NCBI GenBank assembly: GCA_964446535.1
Contig: CAYUOR010000004.1
Span: 1 to 46,380, forward strand
DNA from: an uncultured Candidatus Saccharibacteria bacterium
Lineage (GTDB): Bacteria > Patescibacteriota > Minisyncoccia > Phycocordibacterales > Zambryskibacteraceae
DNA: 46,380 bases
Direction: 5' to 3'
Below are positions 1,279 through 46,380 of this stretch, in pieces. Every line of letters starts with the position of its first letter. Within the stretch, counting starts at the first letter, position 1. The position numbers were made by a program, and so were the translations under genes. The notes under the pieces are model-generated. The model was given only the letters and a program-made list of their open reading frames with translations, did no database searches and was not told the DNA's origin.

Positions 1279-1803
1279 ATGAAAGAGGAAAACGACGACA
1301 TCGTAATTGAAGACGATCCGGAGTTTAAGGCCTCGACGAATACCGAGAAGAAACTTCGGGAGAAACTCAAACAGGCAGAGGCAAAAGCTAAGGAACATCT
1401 GGACGGCTGGCAAAGGGCTCAGGCGGACTTTGTAAATCTTCGTCGGCGCGACGAAGAATCAAAAGCAGAATTCGTGAAGTTCGCGCACTTAGGGCTTATT
1501 CAAGAACTTTTGCCGGTTCTCGACAGCTTCAATGCGGCCCTGGCTCAAGGGCTTGAAAATCTTCGCCCGCCCTTCGAACAGCTTCTCTCGGTATTGAGGT
1601 CTGTTGGACTTGAAGAAATAGAGCCGGTGGGAGAGAAATTCAGTCCGCACGAACATGAGGCGATAGCGACAGCGCCGGTAGAAAACGAAGGGGATGACCA
1701 CAAGGTACTTGAAGTTTTACAAAAAGGATATAAATTAAATGGAAAAATAATCCGACCAGCAAAGGTCAAGGTCGGAGAATTTATAAGTAATAAAGAAAAC
1801 TAA
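1279..1803 (+). CDS. grpE: nucleotide exchange factor GrpE
   Basis: [53 protein letters not shown]; upstream of dnaK. Confidence 0.97.
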
Positions 1804-3709: not shown

Positions 3710-4596
3710 TGAAGGACTATTACAAAATCTTGGGAGTAGAAAAGAATGCTTCCGAGGAGGACATAAAGAAGGCCTTCAGGAAATTGGCGCACACTTACCA
3801 TCCCGATAAGGCGGGGGGTAACGAGGCGAAGTTTAAGGAAGTAAGCGAAGCTTACTCCGTGCTCTCGGATAAAAAGAAGCGTGCCCAGTATGACGCCTTT
3901 GGTCAGGCGGGTGCCGGTGGTTTCCAGGGTGCCTATGGCGGCGCTGGATTTAATCCTTCCGATTTCGGCTTTGATTTCTCCGGCTTTGGCAATGCCGGCT
4001 TTGATGCTGGGGATCTTGGCGATATTCTTTCTTCTATTTTCGGCGGTAGGCGCGTGAGACGCGGTCGAGACATCGCGGTTGATATCGAGCTTTCGTTTCA
4101 AGAATCAATTTTCGGCGCCGAGCGCAAGGTCGTGATAAATTCTAAATTAGTAAAACAAAAAGAAGTTTCTATAAGTGTCCCGCCCGGTATTGATGACGGA
4201 CAGATGATTCGTCTTAACGGCCAGGGAGAGCTTCTCGAAGGAGGGGTGCCTGGAGATCTTTACGTCAAAGTGCATGTTAGGAAACATCCCTATCTTAGGA
4301 AGGAAGGGTATAACCTCCTTATGGATTTGGAAGTTAAACTTTCCGAAGCCATCTTGGGTTCGGAACGCACGATTCATACTCTAGACGGGGAAGTTACTTT
4401 GAAGATTCCGGCAGGCACTCGCCACGGTACGATTTTAAGGGTGAAGAGTAAGGGCGTACCGTACGCCGCGTTACAACCCGGGAGCACCTCTAAAGCGCGC
4501 GGGGATTTATACATTCGCATTTCTGTCCAGATTCCCGACAAACTTTCTAAGGATACGAAGAAACTTATTGAAGAGCTTAAGAAACTCGGACTCTAG
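3709..4596 (+). CDS. dnaJ: DnaJ-family co-chaperone, class B (no zinc finger)
   Basis: J-domain with HPD, G/F-rich linker and C-terminal domain; no CxxCxGxG repeats; overlaps the dnaK stop. Confidence 0.9.
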
Positions 4597-4603
4597 TTTA
4601 CCC

Positions 4604-4631
4604 TTGACATAGAGCCATTTTATATTATAGT
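4604..4631 (+). promoter_or_regulatory. sigma70-type promoter TTGACA-16-TATAGT
   Basis: TTGACA 4604-4609, TATAGT 4626-4631; AAGGAG at 4661-4666 precedes ATG 4674. Confidence 0.7.
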
Positions 4632-4673
4632 TCTTCGCGGAACGGGTTAATTTGACCCAAAAGGAGCTTTGAA

Positions 4674-5420
4674 ATGAAGAGTCTTTACGTGCTTTTTCTT
4701 CTGCCGTTCGCGGCCCTTGCTGGTACGCCGAACGACGGTCCGCCTGAGAATCCTCCGCAGGAGCCACTGTCCTGGGAACAGGTCATCAAGATGAACCCAA
4801 ACCAGGAAGTCGGGGTTGAGACGAAGGTGGATACCGCCACGGTCGTCAAGACGGAGGTGGAGAACACCAACGTCAACAAGGTCGACGGCGGCGATGCCAC
4901 AGCAATCGCCAATGGCGGCGAAGGTGGGCAGGGCGGCGAGGGCGGCGACGCAATCGTCGGCCCCATAAATGTCACGGGCGGTGGGGTGAACATCAACCAT
5001 CCGCGGCAGCCAGTTGCATCAGCCTACGCACCGTCGAACTATCCGTCAGCCATGTGCCAGGCGAGTATTTCGGCAGGTGCACAGTTCAAGTTTTTCGGAT
5101 TTTCTTTCGGGAAGAACTACACAGTTCTGGAATCCTGTCTCATGGTTCTCGCTCAACAGTGGATGGCTATGGGAGAGTACGCTCTTGCTTGCGAGGCACT
5201 CATGGCGACCAAGTCCGCCGATCGAGCCCATGACCCGAAGAACGATGAAAAGATCAGGGAGAGGTGTGCCAATGTTCATGGTCCTGCACCACAAGGAACG
5301 ACTGCATCCGCACCGCAGATCATCATGGTGGCGATTCCGGTACAACAGGGCCAACAGTCACCGCCATTGACGGTGGAACACCTCAACCAGGCGTTCGAGC
5401 AAGCCATGAAGAACAAGTAG
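4674..5420 (+). CDS. secreted hypothetical protein (signal peptide, Gly-rich linker, Cys-containing domain)
   Basis: 248 aa ORF with SD, promoter and terminator; MKSLYVLFLLPFAALA signal-like N-terminus; GGEGGQGGEGG; four Cys. Confidence 0.8.
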   Translation: MKSLYVLFLLPFAALAGTPNDGPPENPPQEPLSWEQVIKMNPNQEVGVETKVDTATVVKTEVENTNVNKVDGGDATAIANGGEGGQGGEGGDAIVGPINVTGGGVNINHPRQPVASAYAPSNYPSAMCQASISAGAQFKFFGFSFGKNYTVLESCLMVLAQQWMAMGEYALACEALMATKSADRAHDPKNDEKIRERCANVHGPAPQGTTASAPQIIMVAIPVQQGQQSPPLTVEHLNQAFEQAMKNK

Positions 5421-5442
5421 CTCTCGCTCTTTTTGAAACCTC

Positions 5443-5480
5443 AAGGTCGGTTCGGCTAAGCCGAACCGACCTTTATTTTT
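5443..5480 (+). terminator. intrinsic terminator
   Basis: Perfect 14-bp stem AAGGTCGGTTCGGC / GCCGAACCGACCTT with a TAA loop, then TATTTTT. Confidence 0.9.
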
Positions 5481-5485
5481 ATGTA

Positions 5486-5515
5486 TTGACACAATGGCTA
5501 GTTTTTCTGTATAAA
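5486..5515 (+). promoter_or_regulatory. sigma70-type promoter TTGACA-18-TATAAA
   Basis: TTGACA 5486-5491, TATAAA 5510-5515. Confidence 0.7.
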
Positions 5516-5561
5516 GTATGCAGATTTAGGTTTTTCTGTGAGCAACAAGGAGGTGAGAGAA

Positions 5562-5681
5562 ATGCTCAAGTTTTTCAGTCTGGTTGGCCCTGGAGACGAA
5601 GGTGACGACGGCGACGGGTGCGAACACGACGACTACGGCGAGGAGAGTGGTCCCGACTCTCCGCCGAACGATGATGGCTAG
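5562..5681 (+). CDS. small acidic protein, 39 aa (not in ORF track)
   Basis: AAGGAGGTGA SD at 5547-5556, ATG 5562; MLKFFSLVGPGDEGDDGDGCEHDDYGEESGPDSPPNDDG*; own promoter and terminator. Confidence 0.72.
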   Translation: MLKFFSLVGPGDEGDDGDGCEHDDYGEESGPDSPPNDDG

Positions 5682-5695
5682 CCGCCATCATCTCA

Positions 5696-5739
5696 GACGG
5701 GTCAGTACGGTTTAACCTAACTGACCCGTCATTTTTTTT
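5696..5739 (+). terminator. intrinsic terminator
   Basis: 11-bp perfect stem GACGGGTCAGT / ACTGACCCGTC followed by ATTTTTTTT. Confidence 0.85.
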
Positions 5740-6323
5740 ATGACATTGTCTGGTCCAATTTCTTCCGCCAATTCTTTTGCTCGAGTGTACTCTTTCGAAG
5801 GGTGCTTACTTTTTGGTGTTACGGCTATTTGCCATAGTTCTTCATCTAATACTTTTCTTAACACAGCATAAACAATCACGTGGTTATTTGTGGTAATAGA
5901 CTCTTTTTCATCAAATGTAAATCTCGGAACATTATTAATAGTCAAAATACGATGGACAAGCTCGTGTGTTAAAGATACAACGAACTCTTTCGGTGACAAA
6001 CCACTTTTTATTATTAAAGGGTGACTACAATCTCTTGGTGTGCCACTGACAATGTATACATCTATAACGTCTCTATTAAAAGACATATTTAAACACTTCG
6101 AAATTTTCTCTAACATCTTGTATTTACTCCACTCTTCTCTAAATGATGCAATTTTCTTATCTATTTGTTCTCTTGTCGGAGGGGTCCAAGTATCCCAGCC
6201 AAACTTTTTAGCATCAGGATAATTTTGACAGTAAAAAATAAAGAAAGGATCTATCAGCCGTCCGTACTGTATTAAGATTTTTGGCTCTTTCTTACTACCG
6301 AGAATTTTTCTTAGAAAGTCCAT
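5712..6323 (-). CDS. hypothetical protein with HExxH motif (possible zincin-like metalloprotein)
   Basis: LTHELVHR motif; likely start MDFLRK at 6323, 8 nt after TGnTATTCT (ORF track extends to 6386). Confidence 0.7.
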   Translation of the reverse strand: MDFLRKILGSKKEPKILIQYGRLIDPFFIFYCQNYPDAKKFGWDTWTPPTREQIDKKIASFREEWSKYKMLEKISKCLNMSFNRDVIDVYIVSGTPRDCSHPLIIKSGLSPKEFVVSLTHELVHRILTINNVPRFTFDEKESITTNNHVIVYAVLRKVLDEELWQIAVTPKSKHPSKEYTRAKELAEEIGPDNVIKKMTGQLG

Positions 6324-6390
6324 GATTAGAGAGAATATCACCGAAACTGCCTTTAAACAAGGATAAGTTCGGCGTGGTATTATCAACCAT

Positions 6391-7044
6391 ATGAATTCCT
6401 CTATGTCTGAACTGGGCTATATATTTACTCTAGGATCTTTGAATATCGGAATTGTGGAAACTCTTTTGTTTCTCGCTTCAGGAGTTTTCGGTGTTATAGC
6501 GTATCGGTTCTATTTTAAAGACATAGTTAATTCGGTAATTCGTCCAAACCGATGGTCGTGGCTTATTTTCTGTATTGCCACCCTGTTGGAAGTATTAACA
6601 TACAACGAAGTTTCTGGAGATTTAGTTAAATCATCTCTTTTCTTTATTTCCGCGGTTGCCACTTTTATTATTGCAGGACTTCTTTGGTCAAGATCAACAT
6701 GGAAAAAACCCGATTGGACAGAATTTATTTGTCTTGCGGCTTCCGTAATCTCTCTTGTTTTGTGGCTTGGTTTTCACGAAACACTTTGGGCCCATATTAT
6801 GCTGGTTATTGCAATACCAATATCGTTTATTCCTATATATAGAGACTCTTGGAACGATTGGCGTTGCGAGGATACTGTCGCGTGGCAACTATGGACGTAT
6901 GGAGATCTACTCGCGGTTTTCCTAGTTCTCACCAGGCTTGATAAGTTAGAAGAACTTCCATTTGCTATAGTCGAATTTTTGTCCCATGCGACGGTTTGGA
7001 TTCTCGTGAGTCGTGGTAAAAAATCATTAAATAAATCTTATTGA
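6391..7044 (+). CDS. polytopic membrane protein
   Basis: 217 aa with about 6-7 hydrophobic segments; TGnTATTAT 7 nt upstream. Confidence 0.75.
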   Translation: MNSSMSELGYIFTLGSLNIGIVETLLFLASGVFGVIAYRFYFKDIVNSVIRPNRWSWLIFCIATLLEVLTYNEVSGDLVKSSLFFISAVATFIIAGLLWSRSTWKKPDWTEFICLAASVISLVLWLGFHETLWAHIMLVIAIPISFIPIYRDSWNDWRCEDTVAWQLWTYGDLLAVFLVLTRLDKLEELPFAIVEFLSHATVWILVSRGKKSLNKSY

Positions 7045-42144: not shown

Positions 42145-42462
42145 CTATCTAGTATTGAAAGAAAGAGGGGTGGTGGCAGAGCGGGAAACGTAGAGCGGGT
42201 TTTTTGTTTCCTTGAATCCGTGCTGAATAGCTACCTCGAGGGTCACACTGTTTTTAAGCTTAACGTAAGCAAATTCCAAAGAGTCAAGATTCGCAGATAT
42301 TTCGGCAATTCTTCTCTCGAGCCCTTGGCGTTCGGCAACATTTCTGGCAGTAATATTTATGGTGTAGATATAGGCAAAGAGAGCCAGTCCCGAAATCATT
42401 AGAAGGGTCCAAAAAATACGGACTCTGTGGTTGTATGAAATTGTTTTTATTTTATAAGTCAT
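42145..42462 (-). CDS. FtsL-like cell division protein
   Basis: One TM plus coiled coil; sits between rsmH and ftsI. Confidence 0.65.
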   Translation of the reverse strand: MTYKIKTISYNHRVRIFWTLLMISGLALFAYIYTINITARNVAERQGLERRIAEISANLDSLEFAYVKLKNSVTLEVAIQHGFKETKNPLYVSRSATTPLSFNTR

Positions 42463-43325
42463 GTTTTCTCTATCACTCTTAACTTGGCGCTTCTTGAACG
42501 CGGGTTCTCGTGTACCTCCGCCGTCCCCGGTCTTATTGGCTTCAGATTCTTGCCTACCTTCTTCGCCAGCCCTCTGGTCACAAGGTCTTTGAAGAAGTTT
42601 TTTACAATTCTATCTTCAAGACTGTGGAAAGAAATAACGGCGAATCTACCAGTACGGTTCAACACCTCAAAGCCTTTTCTTAAACCCAGCTCCAAACTCG
42701 TCAATTCGTCGTTTACCGCGATCCGAATTGCTTGGAAAACTTTAGTGGCAGGATGAATTTTTTCTCTTGGATTTCGGGGCTTCACCCTTAGTACCGCCTC
42801 GACCAAGTCACCGGTAGTCTCAAAAGGCTTTTCTTTTCTTCTTTGAACGATCTCAGCGGCAATTTTTCTCGAAAACTTTTCTTCGCCAAAACCACGAAGT
42901 ACGAGCTCCAGCGCATTTTCGTTCCAAGAGTTGAGAATATCTTTGGCGAGCACCCCTCTTCCTGACATCCGCATGTCAAGAGGTTCGTCTCGCAAGAACG
43001 AGAAGCCTCTACCTAGCGCGTCGAGCTGGTCGCTTGATATGCCAAGATCGAAGAGAATCGCATCGACCTTTAGCAGCCCAAGCTCTCTTATAGCCTTATC
43101 AAGATTTCTGAAGTTTTCTCTTATCGCTTGAACCCCATGAATTGTCTGCGCTTCTGCGACAACTTCTGGATCTTGATCGATGGCCACAACGCGGAGCTCG
43201 GGAAATTGTCTAAGCGCCTCTTTCGTGTGTCCACCGGCACCGAAGGTTGCGTCAAGGAAAACTTTTTCTGGACCGAGGTTTAAGGCCCCGATACTTTCTT
43301 TTAAAAGAACACTTTTGTGATTCAT
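42459..43325 (-). CDS. rsmH: 16S rRNA m4C1402 methyltransferase
   Basis: HKSVLL, DATFGAGGH, FDLGISS, PLDMRM, ISFHSLEDR, NPRSRSAKLR; start set at MNHK 43325. Confidence 0.97.
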   Translation of the reverse strand: MNHKSVLLKESIGALNLGPEKVFLDATFGAGGHTKEALRQFPELRVVAIDQDPEVVAEAQTIHGVQAIRENFRNLDKAIRELGLLKVDAILFDLGISSDQLDALGRGFSFLRDEPLDMRMSGRGVLAKDILNSWNENALELVLRGFGEEKFSRKIAAEIVQRRKEKPFETTGDLVEAVLRVKPRNPREKIHPATKVFQAIRIAVNDELTSLELGLRKGFEVLNRTGRFAVISFHSLEDRIVKNFFKDLVTRGLAKKVGKNLKPIRPGTAEVHENPRSRSAKLRVIEKT

Positions 43326-43326
43326 A

Positions 43327-43758
43327 TCACTTGGAGCTTGAGTTTCCAAGCTTCTCTGTCATTTCTTCGGCCTTAGACTCGATCTTCTTTTTGTAGGCGT
43401 CCCAATGCTTCTTGTTCCAAATTTCTATTCGATCGTGCACCCCAGCAAAGATTACTGGACTCGAGATTGATGCGAATTCTCTGAGGTAATCTGGTATAAG
43501 AATTCTTCCCATCGAATCCACCTCAATTTCGGAAGCACCACTAAACATGAAGCGGGTAAAACCTCTGGCGTCGGAACGCCAACCGAGTTTTGCCATAGCT
43601 TTGGCATTTAATGACCAAGTTTTATTGGGAAAAAGGAAAAGACAATTATCCAGCCCTCGAGTGACAACAACTTTCTTACCGAGCTCCTTACGAAATTTTG
43701 CTGGTAAGGAAATTCGGTTTTTATTGTCTATAGTGTGTTTATACTCGCCGATTAGCAT
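43327..43758 (-). CDS. mraZ: transcriptional regulator MraZ
   Basis: MLIGEYKHTIDNKNRISLP, VDSMGRILIP, DRIEIW; ATG 43758 is 6 nt after TATACT. Confidence 0.97.
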   Translation of the reverse strand: MLIGEYKHTIDNKNRISLPAKFRKELGKKVVVTRGLDNCLFLFPNKTWSLNAKAMAKLGWRSDARGFTRFMFSGASEIEVDSMGRILIPDYLREFASISSPVIFAGVHDRIEIWNKKHWDAYKKKIESKAEEMTEKLGNSSSK

Positions 43759-43764
43759 GGATTT

Positions 43765-43850
43765 AGTATACCCCACTTTTTCCCACCTGACTGAAAGTAT
43801 ATCCCACCGTTTTCCACATAACCACTCAAGTTATCCACTATTTATCCACA
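43765..43850 (-). promoter_or_regulatory. mraZ promoter with GTGG repeat boxes and overlapping DnaA-box-like 9-mers
   Basis: Plus-strand CCAC ends at 43776, 43786, 43807, 43817, 43825, 43838 and 43849; TTATCCACA at 43842-43850. Confidence 0.7.
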
Positions 43851-43912
43851 AGACTAAAAAGCACTGGTCAAGGTCCTGATCAGTGCCTAAAAACGTTGCT
43901 ATCTATAGCTTT

Positions 43913-45904
43913 TTAAATATCCAGAACAGCTTTCTTAGCATTCGATTGTATGAAAGATTTTCTAGAAGGAACATCGGTGCCCATAAGCACATCAAATATC
44001 CTGTCCGCTTCCCTGCCATCTTCAACAGTTACTTTTTTCAATATGCGAGCAGCGGGATTCATAGTAGTTTCCCAAAGTTCTTCGGCATTCATTTCCCCTA
44101 AACCTTTATAACGCTGAATATCACTACCTTCTTTTGCTTTTGAATTCTTCTCTTTATCAGAATAAGCATAGAAGATTTCCTTACCATTTTTAATTTTATA
44201 AAGTGGTGGCTGGGCGATGTAGACGAACCCCGAATCTATAAGAGGTCTGAAGAATCTATAGAGCAGTGTTAGAAGCAGAGTTCTAATGTGTGCGCCGTCG
44301 ACATCAGCATCTGTAGCAATAATGATTTTATGGTATCTAAGTTTCGTTATATCAAAGGTGTCACCTATGGCTGTGCCGAAAGCAACTACAAGATTTTTAA
44401 TCTGCTCACTTGCAAGCATTTTATCCAGGCGTGCCCGCTCTATGTTTAATATTTTTCCACGAAGCGGCAAGATAGCCTGGATACGTCTGTCCCTTCCTTG
44501 TTTAGCTGTGCCACCGGCTGAATCCCCCTCAACTATGAAAAGTTCTGACTCTTCAGCGGAGCGTGACTGACAATCCGCAAGTTTTCCAGGCAAGGTCATA
44601 CCTTCTAGCGCCCCCTTACGCAACACGGAATCTTTAGCGGCCTTAGCGGCCTTCCTTGCTTTAAGTGCCAGAACCACTTTCTGGATAATAGCTTTTGCAT
44701 CATCTGGATTTTCTTCTAAGAAGGCGGCGAAAGCATCTCCAAAAATGCTTGTAACCATACTCTGTGCTTCAACAGAACCCAACTTACTCTTCGTCTGACC
44801 CTCAAATTGAATTTCCCTTAGTTTTACAGAGATTACGGCGGTTAGCCCCTCTAGCACATCATCGCCAGTAAAATTATCTTCCTTCTCGTTTACGAGATTA
44901 TTTTTTCTCGCGTAGGTATTGAGACTACGCGTGAGAGCCGTTTTAAAACCGGTCACATGCGTACCGCCTTCGCTAGTGTAAATGTTATTGGCAAACGGCA
45001 AGACGCGAGCCGAAATATCGTCAACATACTGAAGGGCTACTTCTACAGTTTCAAACTCATTTTTACCAGCTATTTTCTCTACGTAGAAAATATTTTTATG
45101 TATCGGTTTAGAATGTTCGTTCTCAAACCGAACGAGAGAAACCAGCCCCCCCTCAAAACAAAAAGACATTGAGGGCACGTCAAGCCCAAGCTCTCTAAGG
45201 TAAAAAACGCTACCGTCTCCCAGCTTTTTAATATCCGAAGGACTAAACTTAACGTTACTAGCATTAAGTACAGAGATTCTCAAACCTTTTACAAGATAAG
45301 CTTGCTGGCGAACGTGATTTGCTATCCGTTCAAAGACAAAATTTATATCAGGGAAAATGGCATCATCCGGTTTAAAGGTGATAATAGTGCCGTGAAGCTT
45401 AGAGCTGCCTATTTTTTTGACTGCAGCCTTCCTTTTTCCCTGGCTGTATTCCTGCATGAAAATACCGCCGTCACGATGCACTTCTGCTCGGCAGTAGATA
45501 GAAAGAGCGTTAACGACCGAACCGCCGACACCATGGAGCCCTCCGGAAACCTTGTATCCCTCTCCCCCGAACTTGCCTCCGGCATGCAGTGTCGTCATGA
45601 TAGTTTCAAGCGCGGAGACCTTGGTCTGCTTGTGCGTATCAACTGGAATACCACGACCGTTGTCTGTTACTCGTATCATGTTTTCAGGCAGAAGGGCAAT
45701 TTCTATATCATTGGCAAACCCCCCCATCGCCTCGTCTCGCGAGTTGTCAAAAATTTCGGTAACTAGGTGATGTAGACCGTCTGGACCCGTCGTTCCTATA
45801 TACATCCCTGGGCGTTTCCTGACTGGCTCTAAACCCTCAAGAACAGTAATAGATTCAGCGCTATAGGAACTCCCGGCCTTTCTTGGTTTATCGGCTTTCG
45901 GCAT
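43913..45904 (-). CDS. gyrB: DNA gyrase subunit B
   Basis: LEGLEPVRKRPGMYIG, LHAGGKF, SGGLHGVG, VEGDSAGG, LPLRGKILN, TDADVDG, QRYKGLGEM; start set at MPKA 45904. Confidence 0.97.
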   Translation of the reverse strand: MPKADKPRKAGSSYSAESITVLEGLEPVRKRPGMYIGTTGPDGLHHLVTEIFDNSRDEAMGGFANDIEIALLPENMIRVTDNGRGIPVDTHKQTKVSALETIMTTLHAGGKFGGEGYKVSGGLHGVGGSVVNALSIYCRAEVHRDGGIFMQEYSQGKRKAAVKKIGSSKLHGTIITFKPDDAIFPDINFVFERIANHVRQQAYLVKGLRISVLNASNVKFSPSDIKKLGDGSVFYLRELGLDVPSMSFCFEGGLVSLVRFENEHSKPIHKNIFYVEKIAGKNEFETVEVALQYVDDISARVLPFANNIYTSEGGTHVTGFKTALTRSLNTYARKNNLVNEKEDNFTGDDVLEGLTAVISVKLREIQFEGQTKSKLGSVEAQSMVTSIFGDAFAAFLEENPDDAKAIIQKVVLALKARKAAKAAKDSVLRKGALEGMTLPGKLADCQSRSAEESELFIVEGDSAGGTAKQGRDRRIQAILPLRGKILNIERARLDKMLASEQIKNLVVAFGTAIGDTFDITKLRYHKIIIATDADVDGAHIRTLLLTLLYRFFRPLIDSGFVYIAQPPLYKIKNGKEIFYAYSDKEKNSKAKEGSDIQRYKGLGEMNAEELWETTMNPAARILKKVTVEDGREADRIFDVLMGTDVPSRKSFIQSNAKKAVLDI

Positions 45905-45963
45905 GCGTGTTTGTACACCCCATTTTACCAAAATAGGGGCTTAAAAGAAAGCTCTTTTAGCCC

Positions 45964-46380
45964 TTAAACGAGTCGTATTTTAGCCCCAAAATCAGCCTCA
46001 GTTTTCTTCTCTAACCTTTCATGCAATTCGCGGACTTCGGCATTTGTAAGTGTTCTTAGAAGACTTCTATACGTGACGCGGAAAGTATAGCTCATCTTGT
46101 CTTCTCCAAATTTTTTTGCATCTTCATACTTATCCAAAAGCTCGACCTCTTCGACAATTTCTTCAAATAGGTCACGAATAAGGTCAAAAAAATTGTTCGG
46201 TATAAAACTCTTGTCCACGACAAAAGAAATGTCTCGGACTACCGGTGGAAACTTTGAAACTTCTTTGAACTTTTCACCAAGCTTTAATTGTTTTGTTACT
46301 CTTGGGTCTTTGGACCAGAGTAATCGAATGTCGGGAAGGTCCATAGAAGCGATGGCTAGACGCTCAATACCAAAACCGAA
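45964..46380 (-). CDS. pheS: phenylalanine--tRNA ligase, 3' end (partial); motif 3 fused to FDX-ACB domain (single-chain type)
   Basis: From the window edge: FGFGIERLAIASMDLPDIRLLWSKDPR...VSKFPPVVRDISFV...SYTFRVTYRSLLRTLT..EV...H. Confidence 0.9.
   Translation of the reverse strand, partial: FGFGIERLAIASMDLPDIRLLWSKDPRVTKQLKLGEKFKEVSKFPPVVRDISFVVDKSFIPNNFFDLIRDLFEEIVEEVELLDKYEDAKKFGEDKMSYTFRVTYRSLLRTLTNAEVRELHERLEKKTEADFGAKIRLV

Follow-up and report, generated by a model that had tools for sequence, protein, structure and literature searches.

The window analysed here is a stretch of 46,380 nt that makes up an entire contig (C4) of G000, the genome of an uncultured bacterium of the phylum Patescibacteria (523,212 bases in 12 contigs, rated 96.4% complete and 0.13% contaminated). 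At the far end of the window, on the minus strand, lies the 3′ part of a gene for a single-chain phenylalanyl-tRNA synthetase (PheRS), at 45964..46380, comprising 138 codons and a stop codon at 45964-45966, with its 5′ side cut off by the end of the contig. We consider it highly likely that this open reading frame (ORF) is the 3′ end of the sole, functional PheRS of the organism, and that this enzyme consists of one chain. The 138-amino-acid (aa) translation reads FGFGIERLAIASMDLPDIRLLWSKDPRVTKQ...KFPPVVRDISF...YRSLLRTLT...IRLV. Its residues 1-31 (46288..46380, minus strand) are the end of the class II catalytic core, holding motif 3 (FGFGIERLA) and the start of LPDIRLLWS, and match positions 215-245 of the 246 in the Pfam model tRNA-synt_2d at 22.6 bits (cut-off 19.8). 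Residues 42-136 (45973..46257, minus strand) form, after a short linker, a complete ferredoxin-fold anticodon-binding (FDX-ACB) domain (PF03147, model positions 1-94 of 94, 82.8 bits against a cut-off of 31.1, E 2.4e-23), which is equivalent to domain B8 of bacterial PheT and is fused here to the core in the same chain; this match is far above chance.

The original prediction, made from the letters of the window, had motif 3 and LPDIRLLWS running directly into the anticodon-binding domain, saw only the 3′ part of the gene and named gyrB rather than pheT as the gene that follows. All three points hold. A single open frame carries the complete PF03147 match, the window is the whole contig with the 5′ part of the gene on contig C6, and gyrB (43913..45931, minus strand; NCBIfam NF004189, 909.5 bits, cut-off 740) begins 32 nt downstream, after a spacer at 45932..45963 on the same strand that would gain in length if the internal ATG at 45904 is the true start of gyrB.

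The 5′ part was found by searching the genome itself with PF01409. It occupies G000:C6:1-678 on the minus strand and encodes 226 aa from an ATG that lies only 42 residues ahead of the core, covering tRNA-synt_2d positions 17-195; in the same search, the C6 part scored 132.9 bits and the window part 24.2 bits. As a stand-in for the split gene in the fold and hidden Markov model (HMM) tests, we used the closest intact orthologue, P0001 (380 aa). The C6 fragment is 85.0% identical to residues 1-226 of P0001 and the window fragment 84.8% identical to residues 243-380, so that ~16 residues (227-242) fall in an assembly gap, and the P0001 stretch that matches this gap reads KSVLKNFGLEGYNGWA. The full protein is predicted to have ~380 aa. 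No exact overlap of at least 8 bases joins the end of C4 to the start of C6, and the gap thus stays open from the assembly. In the Logan contigs of public runs, the depth at the break is ~2-6x, which explains why the assembly broke at this point, and no listed piece covers the whole stretch. A 245-nt contig from an RNA library equals 46223-46380 without a difference and extends 87 nt beyond the end of the window; the gene therefore continues past the window, while transcription is not thereby proven. The GC content of the two gene parts (39.6% and 43.5%) is close to that of the genome (45.4%), to which the gene is native.

Intact orthologues from the same genus (n = 11, cut from the genomes of relatives) measure 378-381 aa from the first Met and contain, according to Pfam, tRNA-synt_2d and FDX-ACB and nothing else. 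In P0001, the two domains span residues 43-273 (184.8 bits) and 284-378 (81.5 bits), and the linker of ~10 residues between them is conserved. Taken together with the 226-aa core on C6, this domain content means that the upstream part of the gene, seen from its ATG up to the ~16 codons in the gap, is without the B1-B5 domains of PheT. The gene has the architecture of mitochondrial PheRS (PheRS-M), which AARS Online lists with FARS2 / 3CMQ as the example: no beta subunit, no B1-B7 and no coiled-coil N-terminus. Since there is no B3/B4 domain, no editing of Tyr-tRNA-Phe in cis is to be expected.

There is also no pheT elsewhere in this 96.4%-complete genome. Neither the editing domain B3_4 (PF03483) nor the catalytic-like module of PheT (PF17759) has a match in it at E ≤ 1, and both models match all 14 control genomes; the sole FDX-ACB domain of the genome is the one in the single-chain gene. 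The PF01409 search found no second PheRS core. Its other match was rejected as a PheRS, being a 452-aa synthetase of the Asp/Asn/Lys type with tRNA-synt_2 and an oligonucleotide-binding (OB) fold. The 44 tRNA genes of the genome include tRNA-Phe(GAA), with a normal cloverleaf and A73.

The mitochondrial character that the original prediction had read from the domain order is borne out by the shared domain set, by sequence and by a fold match of the orthologue over its whole length. Residues 1-126 of the window fragment align with residues 276-404 of human mitochondrial PheRS (3cmq) at 95 bits (E 3.7e-26), against at most 28 bits for any solved bacterial PheT, and the linker LPDIRLLWS pairs with human IPDIRLFW. 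The C6 fragment scores 94 bits against bacterial PheS (A. baumannii) and 77 bits against human mitochondrial PheRS, whose core match to it is split in two by an insertion. We also built a family alignment (A1) of 46 sequences, comprising viral and organellar proteins and those of Patescibacteria, the Candidate Phyla Radiation (CPR). The two fragments keep 12 of its 12 invariant and 27 of its 28 near-invariant columns, the 28th (A242) lying inside the gap, and the window part keeps the family-invariant G244, R249, D259, R261 and Q273 (P0001 numbering). Among these conserved columns are what we take to be the arginines of motifs 2 and 3, along with the segments FHQ and FP(F/Y)T.

AlphaFold2, run on P0001 with A1, returned a model with a predicted local distance difference test (pLDDT) score of 95.8 and a predicted template modelling (pTM) score of 0.91. 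When this model was compared with the PDB using Foldseek, the top six entries were all human mitochondrial PheRS (3cmq and 5mg* entries, E ~1e-35), with template modelling (TM) scores of 0.79-0.80 over ~388 columns at 32-33% identity. The TM score is 0.59 to the tRNA-bound open form 3tup, which together with the best score to 3cmq indicates that the model is in the closed state, and ~0.53 to bacterial PheS chains, where only the core aligns. Among the curated models, the mitochondrial one (TIGR00469, pheS_mito) gives 86.3 and 102 bits on the two fragments. P0121, the representative of the 50% cluster nearest to the query, passes it (264.3 against a cut-off of 258.35), as do P0137, P0207, P0220, P0166 and P0140; P0125, P0126 and P0129 pass none of the curated models.

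Within the genus, the window fragment finds the single-chain gene at 181-253 bits in 17 of the 18 other genomes, and B3_4 occurs in none of these 17. Across 12 other families of the same order, nine genomes have B3_4, and G021 has the single-chain gene without B3_4; the remaining two are G028, whose two-gene enzyme is reduced, and G030, in which both forms are missing. For the phylum, we searched an even draw of 400 genomes plus G000 (401 in total) with the window fragment and obtained matches at E ≤ 1e-15 in 30 genomes. Four of the 30 were rejected as single-chain genes, being ordinary PheT C-termini on frames of 604-823 aa (57-68 bits). This leaves 26 of the 401 genomes with a single-chain gene, at 96-292 bits and mostly on frames of ~380-410 aa; the G299 copy is divided between two contigs, and the frame in G250 measures 139 aa. 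B3_4 is present in 363 of the 401 genomes, and one of these 363 (G184) is flagged unpublished. No B3_4 match occurs in 25 of the 26 carriers, the 26th (G322) having only a fragment, and the 375 non-carriers comprise 362 genomes with B3_4 and 13 with neither form. Many of the carriers without pheT are 98-100% complete, and the carriers span at least 11 family codes. These counts are descriptive and come with no statistical test, since related genomes are not independent. Across these genomes, the single-chain gene and pheT exclude each other.

Species-representative genomes widen this distribution. Among the best 80 loci, 67 are single-chain, with 64 of them reaching residue 375 at least and 3 cut by contig ends; the other 13 are core-only canonical PheS of Clostridia. 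The labels of the single-chain records, quoted as written (some carry GW2011 or RIFCSP isolate names), are Zambryski-, Yanofsky-, Taylor-, Jorgensen-, Kaiser-, Colwell-, Nomura-, Azam-, Harrison- and Moranbacteria, together with Gracilibacteria, Peribacteria, Paceibacterota and others, and many read ‘uncultured Candidatus Saccharibacteria’. Two loci on records labelled Gracilibacteria and Peribacteria (L130, 589-1728, and L131, 287-1426) give 440 aa under genetic code table 25 and 125 and 87 aa under table 11. Because the single-chain gene is open only under table 25, the record labelled Peribacteria appears to read TGA as sense. One full-length single-chain PheRS (L126), 50% identical to P0001, stands in a record labelled uncultured Gammaproteobacteria; either the label or the binning is wrong, or the gene has a carrier outside Patescibacteria.

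A number of individual genomes in this survey merit a separate description. The B3_4 match of G322 is a 110-aa ORF (G322:C6:12471-15623 (L149), 1420-1752, minus strand; 34 bits) on a contig that differs from that of the PheRS gene. It was considered as a free-standing editing factor; it covers model positions 20-69 only, and could be what is left of a displaced pheT or else a small protein of the B3/4-like kind. G030, from the same order and 98% complete, has neither a single-chain PheRS nor B3_4 and no PF01409 match at all, and G104 and 11 other genomes of the phylum draw likewise have neither; an assembly gap or a further PheRS variant could account for such genomes. G017, a member of the genus (1.1 Mb, 110 contigs, 4% contamination), shows two single-chain copies (C25:18466-18873 and C4:4234-4644), 71% and 59% identical to the window fragment, the second with a TAA within the match, and is probably two organisms binned together.

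A reduced two-gene PheRS lies upstream of gyrB in G028 (L058, G028:C1:38000-49000; 4494-6546, minus strand). Its PheS, at 260 aa, is the core only, without the coiled coil, and its PheT, at 423 aa, has B5, the catalytic-like module and FDX-ACB, with no B1-B4 and hence no editing domain. A 428-aa ORF of this genome was rejected as a single-chain form, being the shortened PheT beside a separate PheS. The two-gene enzyme is a possible intermediate grade of PheRS reduction in the phylum.

The chromosomal position of the single-chain gene is shared with the genes that it excludes. In all 11 loci from the genus, gyrB lies directly downstream, and the canonical relatives G285, G026 and G028 all have pheS-pheT-gyrB in one orientation (3/3). 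From this gyrB-side location, the same as that of pheS-pheT in relatives, it follows that the single-chain gene has replaced pheS-pheT. Loci of the single-chain type were also compared from other genera (n = 11): gyrB comes immediately after the gene and is co-oriented with it in five (G165, G122, G378, G386 and G265), 1-2 kb downstream in two (G389 and G045) and adjacent but divergent in one (G313, a congener of the canonical G285); it was not found in the fetched flank of the other three (G021, G173 and G036, the last cut by a contig end). Identities of the PheRS and of gyrB do not run in parallel. Three genomes of other families (G389, G165 and G386) have a PheRS 69-72% identical to P0001 and a gyrB only 53-54% identical, and G313, from the same order, shows 59% for PheRS and 70% for gyrB. 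This mismatch fits lateral spread within the phylum, with unequal rates as an alternative.

The surroundings of the gene also bear on whether it could be eukaryotic or giant-virus DNA mis-binned into a bacterial genome, given that its nearest characterised relatives are organellar and giant-virus enzymes. We regard this explanation as next to negligible. The gene stands on a 46-kb contig, 32 nt upstream of a bacterial gyrB-mraZ-rsmH run, the linkage to gyrB is repeated in the 11 genus loci and in several other families, the GC content is near that of the genome, and the Gracilibacteria-type copies can be read only with table 25.

Over 42459-45931 and upstream of it, the minus strand has the order PheRS, gyrB, mraZ, rsmH. 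The search for a consensus promoter or terminator in the spacer from the PheRS stop to gyrB found none, and a hairpin of -15.2 kcal/mol there is no better than shuffled sequence (z -1.44). Upstream of PheRS, at C6:714-1961, lies a divergent family-2 glycosyltransferase of the PgaC/IcaA-like type (160.5 bits, below its own cut-off), a homologue of which is found directly downstream of the single-chain PheRS in G173.

To place the family, we ran an exhaustive HMMER search of 1.84 billion cluster representatives, which returned 222 proteins at E ≤ 1e-30. Among the best 150 of the 222, 76 are full-length proteins with core and FDX-ACB, and the others are fragments or unclear; cluster rows marked ‘core_only’ were rejected as canonical PheS, being truncated fragments of single-chain proteins. 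By source name, the Tupanvirus PheRS (P0328) and an Artemisia annua protein (P0384) group with proteins of the pheS_mito type. In the ESM Atlas, the clusters of the query and the nearest clusters of P0125 are Bacteria, mostly Minisyncoccota and Altimarinota.

Trees were built on the core only (~240 columns) and rooted on canonical PheS cut from genomes. In a quick tree of 106 rows, canonical PheS and the single-chain proteins each had a support of 100. The first careful tree (65 rows) gave 98/99 for the CPR single-chain proteins, 100/100 for SrmL, the ‘PheS-related mystery ligase’ of NCBIfam, and 99/78 for the organelle and virus proteins. A second careful tree (69 rows, LG+C20+F+G4) was made without 16 of the inner rows and with 12 named CPR rows and eight Clostridia PheS as additions. 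Here, canonical PheS (23 rows, 15 CPR and 8 Clostridia) and the single-chain proteins (46 rows) both reached 100/100. The 19 rows of the CPR single-chain clade hold together at 100/98, and the 27 organelle, virus and SrmL rows that make up its sister at 99/96. Within the CPR clade, the table-25 lineage branches first and a Harrison/Moran/G021 group next, followed by a tight crown group of Nomura, Azam, Kaiser, Colwell, Jorgensen, Zambryski, Taylor and Yanofsky that includes the source genus. The placement of SrmL is unstable, a trichotomy in the first careful tree and a long branch inside the organelle/virus clade in the second. The Patescibacteria single-chain proteins are sister to the organelle/giant-virus clade and not nested inside it. 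The mitochondrial reading of the original prediction thus needs one refinement: the proteins share one single-chain superclade with the organellar and viral enzymes, but as a sister clade and not as members, and P0001 scores below the pheS_mito cut-off.

These trees also speak to a recent deletion in situ, which would have joined the genome’s own pheS to the 3′ end of its pheT and converged independently on the mitochondrial architecture. Such an event would put the single-chain gene exactly where relatives keep pheS-pheT, as observed, and the PheT of G028, shortened to 423 aa without B1-B4, shows that reduction does occur in the same order. However, the core is cut off by a 100/100 branch from every one of the 23 canonical PheS rows, the same-order ones among them, and groups with the organelle/virus proteins. 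In addition, the window fragment scores 21-38 bits (26-33% identity) against PheT C-termini from the same order and 95 against human mitochondrial PheRS, with which it also has the linker motif in common (LPDIRLLWS, human IPDIRLFW). We therefore hold a local fusion to be extremely unlikely.

A PheS-related paralogue with a non-translational role, comparable to SrmL, is another candidate, in which case the real pheS-pheT would merely be unassembled. The SrmL model (NF051887) covers both fragments (103.8 and 85.1 bits), its score on P0001 (219) nearly equals that of pheS_mito, and the genome is in 12 contigs. Against this, P0001 stays under the SrmL cut-off of 300 while a true SrmL (P0248) scores 402.1, and SrmL sits on a separate long branch in the careful trees. 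Neither a pheT domain nor another PheRS core occurs in the 96.4%-complete genome, and the absence of pheT recurs in 25 of the 26 carriers, many of them 98-100% complete. The gene further occupies the slot of pheS-pheT and keeps all invariant catalytic columns. A non-translational paralogue is accordingly very unlikely in our judgement, and we return to a PheRS that serves translation.

The mode of action of such an enzyme can be proposed by analogy with human mitochondrial PheRS. The CPR core would activate Phe and transfer it to A76 of tRNA-Phe(GAA), and the FDX-ACB domain would make a large swing from the closed position, as modelled, to an open one and then read the GAA anticodon, so that a single chain would do the job of the bacterial (alpha-beta)2 enzyme. 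With no B3/B4 domain predicted, Tyr-tRNA-Phe would be left unedited in cis. Mitochondrial PheRS has itself reportedly lost editing, to go by the title of Roy et al. 2005. On the evolutionary side, the single-chain gene has displaced pheS-pheT at their own locus upstream of gyrB, and it belongs to a CPR-wide clade whose patchy spread across the phylum would be due in part to lateral transfer. Judged from sequence, its product is most likely the sole housekeeping PheRS, without an editing domain.

Passages of one paper (PMC3275996) describe human mitochondrial PheRS as a ‘chimera’ of the alpha catalytic module and the B8 domain of beta, which has full activity in monomeric form and relies on extensive movement of its domains. 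The same passages have the PheRS heterotetramer conserved in all known prokaryotes, with the mitochondrial enzyme as the only monomeric class II catalytic module. This background matters for a variant in which the product is a housekeeping PheRS but not a lone monomer, acting instead as a homodimer or with an unrecognised partner that replaces PheT in trans-editing or tRNA binding. Most class II synthetases are homodimeric. Bacterial PheRS alpha subunits are inactive alone, as stated in those passages (PMC3275996). On the other hand, the human enzyme, with the same domain set and fold, is the fully active monomer described there, no conserved extra gene stands alongside (gyrB lies downstream and a divergent glycosyltransferase upstream), and a free-standing B3_4 was not found in 25 of the 26 carriers. 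A two-copy complex prediction for P0001 with A1 gave 0.00 and 0.00 against a mark of 0.42 and was returned as no answer either way. We consider a homodimer or a hidden partner improbable, and a lone chain remains our preferred form of the enzyme.

Several observations weigh against a sole, functional single-chain PheRS or against its placement. The gene of the window is not seen whole, and a lesion may lie in the ~16 unassembled codons. One genus member (G011, 77% complete) has pheS-pheT instead, on a short contig, 13 of the 401 sampled genomes show neither PheRS form, and three genera (g16, g286 and g304) contain both forms, which could be partly due to mis-binned contigs. Kinship among the genomes means that 25 of 26 overstates the number of independent events. 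P0001 is under the cut-off of each curated model, namely pheS_mito (TIGR00469, 220.3 against 258.35), SrmL (NF051887, 219 against 300) and pheS (TIGR00468, 166.8 against 237.45). In the trees, the rows of the organelle/virus clade are mostly unnamed metagenome proteins, only Tupanvirus and Artemisia being named, and the outgroup consists of CPR and Clostridia PheS, without Alphaproteobacteria and most other phyla. Finally, the activity, monomeric state and fidelity of every family member are carried over by analogy. Architecture, the absence and exclusion of pheT, synteny, fold, conserved catalytic residues and tree position were computed; we infer that the enzyme is catalytically active, monomeric and non-editing, as well as how many transfers took place and in which direction.

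A broader history is possible, although we put it forward as a tentative and rather doubtful one. The one-chain PheRS would not be a eukaryotic invention, having existed in the Patescibacteria radiation or its gene pool before eukaryotes fixed the one-chain form. Of the bacterial lineages that survive, the CPR clade would then be the one most closely related to mitochondrial, plastid and giant-virus PheRS, and perhaps the one from which these enzymes came. Within CPR, the gene would go on replacing pheS-pheT at that one chromosomal slot through lateral transfer.

In the full-text literature, a scope outside which most subscription journals and supplements lie, we found nothing that describes a PheRS of the mitochondrial or single-chain type from Patescibacteria or another bacterium, and no paper naming SrmL. 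The sequences are already public and partly auto-annotated, as their labels show: all 10 NCBI-named rows of the family are called ‘hypothetical protein’ and all nine JGI-named rows ‘phenylalanyl-tRNA synthetase alpha chain’. The architecture, the role as sole PheRS, the displacement of pheS-pheT and the sister position appear to be undescribed in the literature searched.

PheRS is the textbook example of an obligate (alpha-beta)2 synthetase of prokaryotes, and a bacterial lineage living on a one-chain PheRS alone would break that rule. The CPR clade would also provide a bacterial sister group for testing the origin of mitochondrial PheRS, and the source organism a predicted example of a cell that does without PheRS editing. 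There are practical consequences as well. The gene pheT is a common single-copy marker, and the single-chain form explains why it is missing from ~6% of the Patescibacteria species sampled; this absence affects trees of marker genes and estimates of completeness. The NCBI name ‘hypothetical protein’ for predicted PheRS is an annotation gap, and a compact bacterial PheRS, of a predicted 380 aa, may be on offer for engineering work.

Among known systems, the closest in layout is PheRS-M (human FARS2, 3CMQ/3TUP, TIGR00469). The CPR enzyme shares with it the PheS core with motifs 1-3, the linker and the C-terminal FDX-ACB domain, in the same order, as well as the lack of a coiled-coil N-terminus, a beta subunit and a B3/B4 editing domain. 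Unlike PheRS-M, the CPR gene lies on a bacterial chromosome beside gyrB as the only PheRS of the cell, its protein has neither a targeting peptide nor the insertion that splits the human core match, and the CPR proteins form a separate sister clade (100/98). Giant-virus PheRS, such as that of Tupanvirus soda lake (P0328; viral chains are ~340-360 aa), has the same single-chain combination of tRNA-synt_2d and FDX-ACB and belongs to the same superclade; the viral proteins differ in that they exceed the pheS_mito cut-off (308.5 bits for P0137, for example) and cluster with the organellar enzymes rather than the CPR clade. With canonical PheS/PheT ((alpha-beta)2; TIGR00468 and TIGR00472), the CPR enzyme has in common a homologous core, a homologous B8 anticodon domain and the same slot next to gyrB, but it is encoded by one gene and has no N-terminal coiled coil and no B1-B7, and so neither an editing site nor a catalytic-like module. 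SrmL (NF051887) is of the same length class and has a layout of core and FDX-ACB-like domain, its model aligning with residues 50-367 of P0001, yet P0001 reaches 219 bits where true SrmL representatives reach 402. By these sequence comparisons, the most apt description of the CPR enzyme is that of a bacterial lineage sister to PheRS-M; it is neither a canonical PheS nor an SrmL.

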